This document shows, piece after piece, positions 22,419 to 25,868 of a DNA stretch of 64,000 nucleotides. Positions within the stretch are counted from its first letter, which is position 1; every line of letters starts with the position of its first letter. Both the position numbers and the translations under genes were made by a program. A model generated the notes under the pieces. It did not search any database, was not told the DNA's origin, and was given only the letters and a program-made list of their open reading frames with translations. The stretch is from Escherichia coli 042 (GTDB lineage Bacteria > Pseudomonadota > Gammaproteobacteria > Enterobacterales > Enterobacteriaceae), in NCBI RefSeq assembly GCF_000027125.1, contig NC_017626.1. The stretch is one strand, 5' to 3'.

Positions 22419-23834
22419 TTACTGCTGGTTTTCGCGTTCAGCAATAAAAGCCAGCGCTTTGTTGATACGCTCGATACTGCGGGTCTTACCGATTGCGTGA
22501 ACAGTAACATCCAGCGCCGGAGACTGCCCCGCACCGGTTACGGCGACACGCAGCGGCATACCAACTTTACCCATACCCACTTCCAGCTCATCCGCCGTCG
22601 CCTGAATAGCGTGATGAACGTTTTCAGCGGTCCAGTCAGTAATCGCAGTCAGTTTGTCACGAACCACTTCCAGCGGCTGACGCGCTACTGGGCGCAGATG
22701 TTTTTTCGCGGCGTCGGCATCGAACTCAGCAAAATCTTCGTAGAAATAGCGGCAGCTCTGTGCCATCTCTTTCAGCGTCTTGCAGCGTTCACCCAGCAGT
22801 TTCACTAGATCAGCCAGCTGCGGGCCGTTACGGGTATCGATATTTTCCTGCTCAATGTGCCACTGTAAGTGAGTAGCAACATACTCCGGCGGCAGCGCGT
22901 TAATGTAGTGATGGTTCAGCCACAGCAGCTTGTCGGTGTTGAACGCACTGGCAGATTTGCTGACGGCATTCAGAGTGAAGTATTTGATCATCTCTTCACG
23001 AGTGAAGATTTCCTGATCGCCGTGGGACCAGCCCAGACGCACCAGATAGTTCAGCAGTGCTTCTGGCAGATAACCGTCATCACGATACTGCATTACGCTG
23101 ACCGCCCCGTGACGTTTGGACAGTTTTTTACCGTCATCGCCGTTGATCATAGAAACGTGTGCGTAAACCGGTACCGGCGCTTTCAGAGCCTTAAGAATGT
23201 TGATCTGGCGCGGTGTGTTGTTGATATGGTCTTCGCCACGGATAACGTGGGTGATTTCCATATCCCAGTCATCGACAACCACACAGAAGTTATAGGTTGG
23301 GGAACCATCGGTACGGCGAATGATCAGATCATCCAGTTCCTGGTTGCTGAACTCGATCGGACCACGGATCTGATCGTCAAAAACAACAGAACCTTCCTGC
23401 GGGTTAGCAAAACGTACAACGCACGGTTCATCATCAGCATGATGATCATGGCTGTGGCGGCAGCGACCGTCATAACGCGGCTTCTCACCTTTCGCCATTT
23501 GCTCTTCGCGCAGCGCTTCCAGGCGCTCTTTAGAACAATAGCATTTATAAGCTGTGCCCTCTTCCAGCATCTGATCGATCACCGCGTTGTAGCGATCAAA
23601 ACGTTTGGTCTGGTAGTACGGACCTTCATCCCACTCCAGGCTCAGCCAGTTCATGCCATCCATAATGGCTTCGATAGCTTCCGGCGTGGAACGCTCAAGA
23701 TCGGTGTCTTCAATACGCAGCACGAACTCACCGCCGTGGTTACGTGCAAAAAGCCAGGAGTAAAGAGCAGTACGCGCGCCGCCAACGTGCAGATAGCCTG
23801 TTGGGCTTGGCGCGAAGCGAGTTTTGATTTTCAT
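22419..23834 (-). CDS. gltX: Glutamyl-tRNA synthetase
   Basis: 471 aa with HVGG (HIGH) and KLSKR (KMSKS) motifs. Recognised as GltX. Confidence 0.97.
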
Positions 23835-24092: not shown

Positions 24093-24168
24093 GGGTGATT
24101 AGCTCAGCTGGGAGAGCACCTCCCTTACAAGGAGGGGGTCGGCGGTTCGATCCCGTCATCACCCACCA
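24093..24168 (+). tRNA. valU: tRNA-Val (UAC)
   Basis: GGGTGATTAGCTCAGCTGGGAGAGCACCTCCCTTACAAGGAGG...CACCCACCA, 76 nt, with anticodon TAC. Confidence 0.97.
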
Positions 24169-24212
24169 ACTACTTTATGTAGTCTCCGCCGTGTAGCAAG
24201 AAATTGAGAAGT

Positions 24213-24288
24213 GGGTGATTAGCTCAGCTGGGAGAGCACCTCCCTTACAAGGAGGGGGTCGGCGGTTCGATCCCGTCATCACCCACCA
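24213..24288 (+). tRNA. valX: tRNA-Val (UAC)
   Basis: Identical 76-nt copy. Confidence 0.97.
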
Positions 24289-24334
24289 CTTTCTCGCCAG
24301 CTAAATTTCTTGTAACAATGTGAAGTACCGAAGT

Positions 24335-24410
24335 GGGTGATTAGCTCAGCTGGGAGAGCACCTCCCTTACAAGGAGGGGGTCGGCGGTTCGATCCCGTCA
24401 TCACCCACCA
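24335..24410 (+). tRNA. valY: tRNA-Val (UAC)
   Basis: Identical 76-nt copy. Confidence 0.97.
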
Positions 24411-24414
24411 CTTC

Positions 24415-24490
24415 GGGTCGTTAGCTCAGTTGGTAGAGCAGTTGACTTTTAATCAATTGGTCGCAGGTTCGAATCCTGCACGACCCACCA
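24415..24490 (+). tRNA. lysV: tRNA-Lys (UUU)
   Basis: GGGTCGTTAGCTCAGTTGGTAGAGCAGTTGACTTTTAATCAATTGG...CGACCCACCA, 76 nt, starting 4 nt after valY. Confidence 0.97.
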
Positions 24491-24494
24491 ATGT

Positions 24495-24521
24495 AAAAAA
24501 GCGCCCTAAAGGCGCTTTTTT
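24495..24521 (+). terminator. Terminator of the val-lys tRNA operon
   Basis: aaaaaagcgcc-ctaaa-ggcgctttttt. Confidence 0.88.
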
Positions 24522-24554
24522 GCTATATGCGGTTTGTAAGATTGATTTTTCTTC

Positions 24555-24581
24555 TCAAGTTCCTTGTTCTTCTGCCGATAT
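24555..24581 (+). promoter_or_regulatory. Candidate sigma28 (FliA) promoter
   Basis: TCAAGTTC-11 nt-GCCGATAT compared with the consensus TAAAGTTT-N11-GCCGATAA. The -35 matches 6 of 8 and the -10 matches 7 of 8, with exact spacing. It lies 28 nt upstream of the FlxA-like ATG. Confidence 0.6.
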
Positions 24582-24609
24582 TACCTCGTACAGTGACGAG
24601 GACTGAACA

Positions 24610-24951
24610 ATGGCCACTATCTCTCCAACTTCAATTCCTTCCATACAAACACAGAGTAGTAACAGGGCATCAGAAGGTAGCGATGTTGCTTCACAAATTG
24701 CGCGGATAAGTCAGCAAATCATCAAACTCACTCAACAAATTAAAGAGATTGCAGACACTAGCGGCAGTGCTGAAGACAAGCAAAAACAGGCCGAATTGAT
24801 TCAGCAGCAAATCACCCTACTGGAAACACAACTGGCGCAGTTGCAAAGACAGCAGGCAGAAAAAGCGCAGGAGAAAGAGCAGCGTTTGTCTCTGAATGCA
24901 TCCCTTCCAAATCCTGTTGAAAAAACGACTCAGATCGATATCTATATCTGA
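24610..24951 (+). CDS. FlxA-like glutamine-rich coiled-coil protein (strain-specific)
   Basis: 113-aa ORF with a GAGGA SD 7 nt upstream. It has an S/T/Q-rich N-terminus, heptad-like [13 protein letters not shown]…[28 protein letters not shown] and the C-terminal motif QIDIYI. As I recall, this resembles the FlxA family (PF14282). It is absent from this position in K-12. Confidence 0.6.
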
Positions 24952-25868
24952 TACAGCGGATCCCCTTCCCGCCCAGCCATTAGAGCACGGCCCTGGCCTC
25001 GTACCACGTCCCATAACGCTTGTGCGGCGGTGGAAAGTGAACGGTTCTTCCTGCGCACCAGCATCAACTGGCGTTCCACCACCGGCGTAATGCGCTTTAC
25101 CACCAGCGGGCTACCTTCAGGTAACGGCAGCGCCAGTGCGGGAAGAATACTAATGCCGATGCCTGCGGCTACCATCGGGAACAGCGTCGCCGGATGTCCA
25201 ATCTCCTGCACAATATTCGCCTGAATACCATTGCGCGCCAGCGCTGCGTCAATCAGCGGTCGGCTGCCTGACGCGTAATCCTGCAACACCAATTTCGCTC
25301 CCTGTAATGCCTGCCAGGGTACATAATCTTCCGCGGCCAAAGCGCTATCGCGATGGCAAAGCAAGAAGAAAGGCTCGGAAAGAATCGCTTCACATTGCAG
25401 ATCGCCCACTGGGCCTGGATCGATGACGATGCCAAAATCGACATCTCCCTGGCGAATACTTTCCATCACCCACTGCTGCGGACGATCGTGCAGGATAAAC
25501 TGAATATCTGGATAGCGGCGATGGCTTTCAGCAATGCATTGCGGAATAAGATGCGCGGAAATGGTCTGGCTGGCAGCGACCCGAACTTTTCCGCTCAGTT
25601 GTTGCCCCATACGCCCGGTATCGCGCAACGTGCTGTTAAGTTCATCCAGCAGTCGCTCAAGACGCAAAGCCAACTGCTGCCCTGCATCTGTAAGCACCAC
25701 TTCACGCGTGGTTCTGTCCAGCAGGCGAACACCAGTATGATTTTCCAGCTCCTTCACACTGTGACTTACTGCCGACTGACTCAGGCCGATACGCTCTCCT
25801 GCACGACTAAAACTTTTCTCCTGCGCTACTGTGACGAAAACCTTTAATTGTTTTAAAGAATAATTCAT
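24942..25868 (-). CDS. yfeR: LysR-family transcriptional regulator
   Basis: 308 aa with an N-terminal wHTH ([23 protein letters not shown]). Matches YfeR and is divergent from yfeH. Confidence 0.92.

Follow-up and report, generated by a model that had tools for sequence, protein, structure and literature searches.

The site 28 nt ahead of the FlxA-like gene in Escherichia coli 042 is very probably a sigma-28 (FliA) promoter, an assignment read from sequence that would make the gene a member of the flagellar regulon. The assignment is based on the match of the site to sequences bound by FliA, on its statistical rarity in the window (the whole 64,000-nucleotide stretch of the strain 042 chromosome analyzed here), on its position relative to the start codon, and on the conservation of its bipartite footprint; from these we infer that the gene depends on FliA. 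The original prediction had presented the gene as an uncharacterized member of the regulon. The promoter statistics and the footprint favor its membership, but the gene itself already carries the name flxA in O157:H7 Sakai, where the orthologue (ECs_3279) is described as a hypothetical protein.

The gene follows a tRNA operon and meets yfeR tail to tail (Table 1), and the order continues past yfeR with yfeH, ypeB, and ligA. An Rfam search returned tRNAs only. Both octamers, their exact 11-nt spacing, the 28 nt between the -10 octamer (last base, 24581) and the ATG (24610), and a leader hairpin whose 3' arm contains most of the GAGGA all lie in the sequence where they had originally been predicted.

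Table 1. Features of the FlxA-like locus, in window coordinates
Feature	Position	Strand	Basis or description
gltX	22419-23834	-	ORF list; gene order around the FlxA-like ORF
valU-valX-valY-lysV tRNA operon	24093-24490	+	tRNA search
Intrinsic terminator of the tRNA operon	24494-24521	+	A-run, GCGCC/GGCGC stem, CTAAA loop, T6 tract
-35 element TCAAGTTC	24555-24562	+	6/8 matches to TAAAGTTT
Spacer CTTGTTCTTCT, 11 nt	24563-24573	+	Between the -35 and -10 octamers
-10 octamer GCCGATAT	24574-24581	+	7/8 matches to GCCGATAA; CGA core intact
Inverted repeat	24584-24601	+	6-bp RNA hairpin: CCTCGT (24584-24589), loop ACAGTG (24590-24595), ACGAGG (24596-24601)
Predicted transcription start	24587-24590	+	Inferred from the aer rule, 6-9 nt past the octamer
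Shine-Dalgarno GAGGA	24598-24602	+	7 nt before the ATG
FlxA-like ORF, 113 aa	24610-24951	+	ATG at 24610; Pfam PF14282
yfeR, LysR-family regulator	24942-25868	-	ORF list, Pfam, synteny

Relative to the sigma-28 consensus, the -35 element is mismatched at two of eight positions and the -10 octamer at one of eight. Promoters bound by FliA carry comparable -35 elements, namely, TCAAGTCC at flgKL (TCAAG) and TCAACTTC at modA (TCAAC) (PMC4183435). At the aer promoter, the transcription start was mapped 6 bp past the -10 octamer, with CGA occupying positions -11 to -9 (Hollands et al. 2010, PMC2859248). Applied strictly, this rule would place the start at C24587; the purines within the predicted start region are G24588 and A24590, and the leader is predicted to be about 20 to 23 nt long.

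A consensus search allowing at most three mismatches returned one match in the window against 0.35 expected, and at least one match arose in 27 of 100 shuffles. Because this search is too weak by itself, we used a weight matrix derived from the 52 sites at which ChIP-seq detected FliA in K-12 cells (Fitzgerald et al. 2014, PMC4183435, Table 2), in line with the original proposal to score the site against a FliA matrix. The score of the site, computed from the informative columns, is 21.0 bits (exact p = 2.05e-8 per position), a value for which chance predicts about 0.003 occurrences in the window (128,000 positions) and about 0.2 in a whole genome. It is the top matrix match in the window by a margin of more than 6 bits; matrix versions using all columns give it 19.6 bits, against about 13 bits for the runner-up in the window. 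Of the 52 ChIP-seq sites, just 5 (tar, flgMN, hypD, yhjH, and motAB) rank above the window site, which outscores modA, flgKL, tsr, fliD, fliA, and fliC; the K-12 flxA promoter scores 21.5 bits.

A scan of one genome per species recovered 32 loci encoding FlxA-like relatives, distributed among Pseudocitrobacter, Shigella, Kluyvera, Scandinavium, Citrobacter, Enterobacter, Pseudescherichia, Franconibacter, Lelliottia, Buttiauxella, Dryocola, and Qin-type E. coli. When both strands of each locus (approximately 6 kb) were searched with the matrix, the best match was the homologous site in all 32, and wherever the gene start could be matched directly, it lies 27 to 31 nt upstream of the start codon. 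We aligned 31 distinct upstream sequences, drawn from other genera and from the Qin-type copy, by anchoring them on the octamer. Across this alignment (T)GCCGATA is invariant, and the -35 element is mostly TCAAG, with TCAAC, TGAAG, TAATC, TAACC, or TAAAG in the remainder. The spacer measures 11 nt in the related loci, except for two with 12 nt, and its sequence is not conserved between genera. Information thus peaks at TCAAG and (T)GCCGATA only, with essentially none in the spacer or in the 25 nt upstream, a pattern that a two-element promoter would be expected to leave and hardly anything else would. Where the neighbor has changed, the motif has remained with the FlxA-like gene: lysV is upstream in most genera, and a divergent xapA is upstream in Citrobacter. 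The original description of the site as a sigma-28 class-3 promoter agrees with the locus in every sequence property, and with a footprint conserved before the orthologues.

Outside the clade formed by E. coli and Pseudocitrobacter, a T-rich block (CTCTATTTT or CCTTATATTT) is present 2 to 9 nt past the octamer (e.g., positions 2972 to 2985 of locus L015). It falls in the predicted start region, where its conservation almost equals that of the -35 element, and it could be an initial transcribed sequence or could pair with an A-rich segment that precedes the Shine-Dalgarno sequence.

The leader hairpin raises the question of translational control. It folds at -8.6 kcal/mol (z = -2.4) and accounts for 85% of the ensemble, with 5 of 200 shuffles folding as well; its 3' arm takes in GAGG, most of the Shine-Dalgarno sequence, and its 5' arm straddles the predicted start. 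It had been suggested that the hairpin could act as a translational gate on mRNA made by FliA, with the Shine-Dalgarno sequence hidden in the stem, and both the stability of the stem and its history lend this some appeal. The hairpin is retained in Shigella flexneri, O157:H7, and BL21; Pseudocitrobacter has a G-U-compatible change together with two changes in the loop; and in Kluyvera all four close relatives carry, at the corresponding position, a stem with other arms (CCTTAT/ATAAGG), equivalent to two compensatory pair changes. These sequence patterns hint that the stem matters in some RNA. For the FliA transcript itself, however, the aer rule predicts a start that strips the 6-nt 5' arm of 3 to 6 of its nucleotides, leaving most of that arm untranscribed. 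RNA beginning at 24587 or 24588 is predicted to form only a weak stem (-4.4 to -4.6 kcal/mol), with the Shine-Dalgarno sequence in its loop, and in most other genera the leader from the predicted start has little or no structure (0 to -3 kcal/mol). Because the predicted start cuts the 5' arm, we consider a gate on the FliA transcript decidedly unlikely, unless transcription begins 2 to 3 nt further upstream.

The same folds allow a different role for the stem. The probability that the Shine-Dalgarno sequence is unpaired is 0.00 in the long RNA against 0.3 to 0.4 in RNA beginning at the predicted start; among the orthologues, mean accessibility rises from 0.25 in long RNAs to 0.47 in those initiated at the predicted start, a difference computed without control genes and not counted as evidence. 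Longer RNAs pair more in general. In such a model, the hairpin may act as a promoter-dependent license for translation, in which RNA reading through from the tRNA genes would be locked and RNA initiated by FliA would be translatable. If this is true, the protein would be produced only from FliA-initiated transcripts despite a noisy neighborhood.

A second alternative to FliA-driven expression is that the gene owes most of its expression to read-through out of the tRNA operon or to an unrecognized sigma-70 promoter, the sigma-28-like motif being incidental or minor. The ORF begins 120 nt past a type of unit that is transcribed as heavily as almost any, terminators leak, and GATATT, within the octamer, matches TATAAT at four of six positions. 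Yet a strong terminator intervenes (a 13-bp stem within a 150-nt fold), ending 33 nt before the -35 element, and no sigma-70-like promoter is predicted from this terminator to the ATG. Nor would read-through explain why TCAAG-N11/12-GCCGATA has stayed invariant amid drifting flanks, or why the motif is retained in Citrobacter, where the upstream tRNA operon is missing; moreover, the long transcripts it supplies are those in which the Shine-Dalgarno sequence is predicted to be fully paired. We therefore regard this explanation as highly improbable. The terminator consensus scan did not report the terminator of the tRNA operon, probably because an A/T extension of the stem takes up the T tail.

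That the bipartite motif is instead a binding site for some other protein, or a leftover of integration at lysV, is barely credible: tRNA-Lys genes are integration hot spots, and in K-12, S. flexneri, and Pseudocitrobacter the 3' end of tRNA-Lys and the terminator occur in duplicate immediately upstream, but both halves of the motif fit the FliA matrix at exact spacing, their distance to the start codon is fixed, and the motif persists away from lysV in Citrobacter and also precedes the prophage copy whose dependence on FliA is proven.

With the site read as a sigma-28 promoter, FliA holoenzyme would bind both elements and initiate transcription at approximately 24587 to 24590, yielding a transcript with a leader of about 20 nt and an exposed GAGGA, and the terminator of the tRNA operon would isolate the FliA-driven unit. 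According to class-3 logic, FlhDC is needed for the production of FliA, and export of FlgM releases FliA. What is known of this cascade leads us to expect that the FlxA-like coiled-coil protein would be made only late in flagellar assembly, after FlgM export has freed FliA. Promoter and gene together would constitute a conserved module adjoining yfeR across the Enterobacteriaceae.

At the other end of the unit, the FlxA-like ORF and yfeR are convergent, and their 3' ends overlap by 10 nt. No plus-strand terminator is predicted past the FlxA-like stop codon (window positions 24942 to 25200), and in view of this and of the overlap, the FliA-driven transcript may enter yfeR in the antisense direction. 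The overlap amounts to 10 nt in Citrobacter and 4 nt in Enterobacter.

The 113-aa product matches Pfam PF14282 (FlxA) with an E value of 5.9e-15 and 55.7 bits (cutoff, 26.3). It is 45% identical to K-12 FlxA across 74 aa (E = 3e-13), and the two have in common a QLxQLxRQQAE core and a C-terminal IDIY. An alignment of orthologues shows the C-terminal IDIYI to be conserved, and the N terminus is rich in Ser and Thr and predicted to be disordered. The AlphaFold2 model, computed from an alignment of 34 family members, is an antiparallel helical hairpin (helices 22 to 49 and 54 to 97) with disordered residues 1 to 23 and a disordered tail; its mean pLDDT is 65, rising to 77 to 86 within the helices. 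Searching the PDB by sequence returned designed coiled coils only, and searching it with the model in Foldseek returned only generic helical hairpins, all with E values of at least 0.3; an NCBIfam search gave nothing above the cutoff. Family searches found FlxA-like relatives in the Enterobacteriaceae only.

The K-12 prophage flxA was found to be dispensable for motility, and it may be a poor proxy for the role of the family. Given the disordered N terminus and the helical hairpin of the model, members of the FlxA family may be conserved proteins of the late flagellar stage that have a genuine role, for example, as a substrate or partner of the export apparatus. Stated together with the suggestion that the hairpin licenses translation, this is a proposal that we hold to be unlikely.

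Within the coding sequence, an A6 run (24919 to 24924) has lost one A in two clusters of 159-aa proteins from read-archive assemblies (P0001 and P0002). The loss shifts translation into an overlapping +1-frame ORF (24896 to 25090) and replaces the conserved IDIYI end; either genuine slippage or faulty assembly could account for these clusters.

The FlxA-like gene is present in 1,307 of 5,426 complete E. coli genomes (24%), including those of O157:H7, O145:H28, and the B/BL21 lineage. The original prediction had treated it as a chromosomal paralogue of the prophage gene. It is instead a vertically inherited, syntenic chromosomal lineage adjoining yfeR, and not a derived copy: it is located in the core chromosome between lysV and yfeR, with synteny conserved across genera, and in E. 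coli, Citrobacter, and Enterobacter it always converges with yfeR and overlaps the end of that gene. By sequence comparison, the Qin flxA of K-12 is a separate phage lineage. K-12 does not carry the chromosomal gene, the block from 24541 to 24940 (the promoter and nearly the whole ORF) being replaced there by xapR-xapB-xapA-yfeN. FliA studies in K-12 consequently never saw it. In Salmonella, the matches are to prophage-type copies only, and K-12 and Salmonella thus both appear to lack a FlxA-like chromosomal gene. To our knowledge, FliA regulons have been mapped almost only in these two.

The breakpoints of the K-12 replacement (L037, 1870 to 6430) exactly flank the promoter and the ORF. In the window, and in the 24% of E. 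coli genomes, the FlxA-like module is alone in the lysV-yfeR interval, and in Citrobacter (L039) the interval holds xapRBA together with the FlxA-like gene, the latter in the position of K-12 yfeN.

Of the E. coli genomes having the region 24548 to 24612, 558 match the window throughout and 756 depart from it at one or two positions. In BL21, M11, and S. flexneri, the first base of the octamer is A instead of G, resulting in ACCGATAT and a matrix score of 18 bits, and this A variant is probably present in many other E. coli strains as well. Octamers of the form ACCGATAA are functional at the ycgR and fliD promoters (PMC4183435).

Several further features of the region vary among strains. In E. 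coli HH45 the module has decayed: short insertions interrupt the octamer and the leader, and the frameshifted gene carries a pseudogene annotation (L044, 560 to 720). In O157:H7 Sakai, yfeR (ECs_3280; L038, 15445 to 16371) is annotated as a pseudogene next to an intact ECs_3279. The duplicated tRNA-Lys 3' end, with its second terminator copy 3' of lysV, is located at 1830 to 2040 in K-12 (L037) and at approximately 2728 to 2930 in S. flexneri (L004) and Pseudocitrobacter (L003). It is absent from the window (24491 to 24540), from O157:H7, and from BL21; its sequence suggests a trace left by an early integration event at lysV. In BL21-RIPL, gltX and the other tRNA-Val genes are replaced by mobA-mobB, which immediately precede valY-lysV (L036, 1 to 1500); this arrangement indicates a chromosomal rearrangement via the tRNA copies.

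Our search of the literature on the gene (ECs_3279, flxA of O157) found no start-site, ChIP, or fliA-mutant expression data, and the papers dealing with flxA outside K-12 concern the prophage copy or the presence or absence of the gene only. In the accessible part of the table of 5' UTR lengths for genes shared by EDL933 and K-12, part of a Cappable-seq study of EDL933 (PMC10469882), the FlxA-like gene is not listed.

If the sigma-28 assignment is correct, a small coiled-coil protein would be a conserved class-3 regulon member in many motile Enterobacteriaceae, O157:H7 and roughly one in four sequenced E. coli would be among its carriers, and K-12 flxA, the sole family member to have been studied, would be a prophage-borne side branch. 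ECs_3279 then offers a concrete gene with which to ask about the function of FlxA, and its promoter adds one more clean sigma-28 promoter to regulon models beyond K-12. Concepts of the sigma-28 promoter are unchanged, and the assignment will not surprise specialists, but it is useful for annotating the regulon outside K-12.

Among known systems, the sigma-28 promoter of aer resembles that in the window in having an imperfect octamer (GCCGACAT). It differs in requiring CRP bound at -49.5 (PMC2859248). In the window, the terminator of the tRNA operon occupies the equivalent position, which makes a similar activator site unlikely. The flgKL and modABC promoters are closer in sequence, with a TCAAG or TCAAC -35 element and a TGCCGATA(A/T)T -10 region, and the modA sequence TCAACTTCCTGCTTTTCCTGCCGATATT closely resembles the 28-mer of the window, TCAAGTTCCTTGTTCTTCTGCCGATATT. 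The flgKL and modABC promoters are both bound by FliA in vivo (fold above threshold, 47 and 32; PMC4183435), but they drive a hook-filament junction operon and a molybdate transporter, respectively, and flgKL additionally has class-2 input, whereas the window promoter shows no sign of an upstream activator site or of a second promoter.

The flxA promoter of K-12 (Qin prophage, b1566) likewise drives a PF14282 protein of about 110 aa from an octamer-N11-GCCGATA arrangement with a short leader. Its layout is TAAAGATT-N11-GCCGATAG with 22 nt to the ATG, compared with 28 nt in the window, and it is prophage-borne, with a TAAAG -35 element and no leader hairpin, whereas the window gene is chromosomal and has a TCAAG -35 element. 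The proteins diverge as well: PHROG 11044, a family of unknown function, is matched by K-12 FlxA with an E value of 2e-71 and by the window protein with one of 1e-9, and a tblastn search of 50,697 phage records with the window protein produced no match. The dependence of K-12 flxA on FliA, noted in the original prediction, is strong: FliA binds there in vivo, and deleting fliA lowers expression from 280 to 2 (PMC4183435), with a second study giving a 28-fold decrease in a fliA deletion and an 8-fold increase upon overexpression. The promoter of the Qin copy, which scores within half a bit of the window site, belongs to one of the most strongly FliA-dependent genes known.
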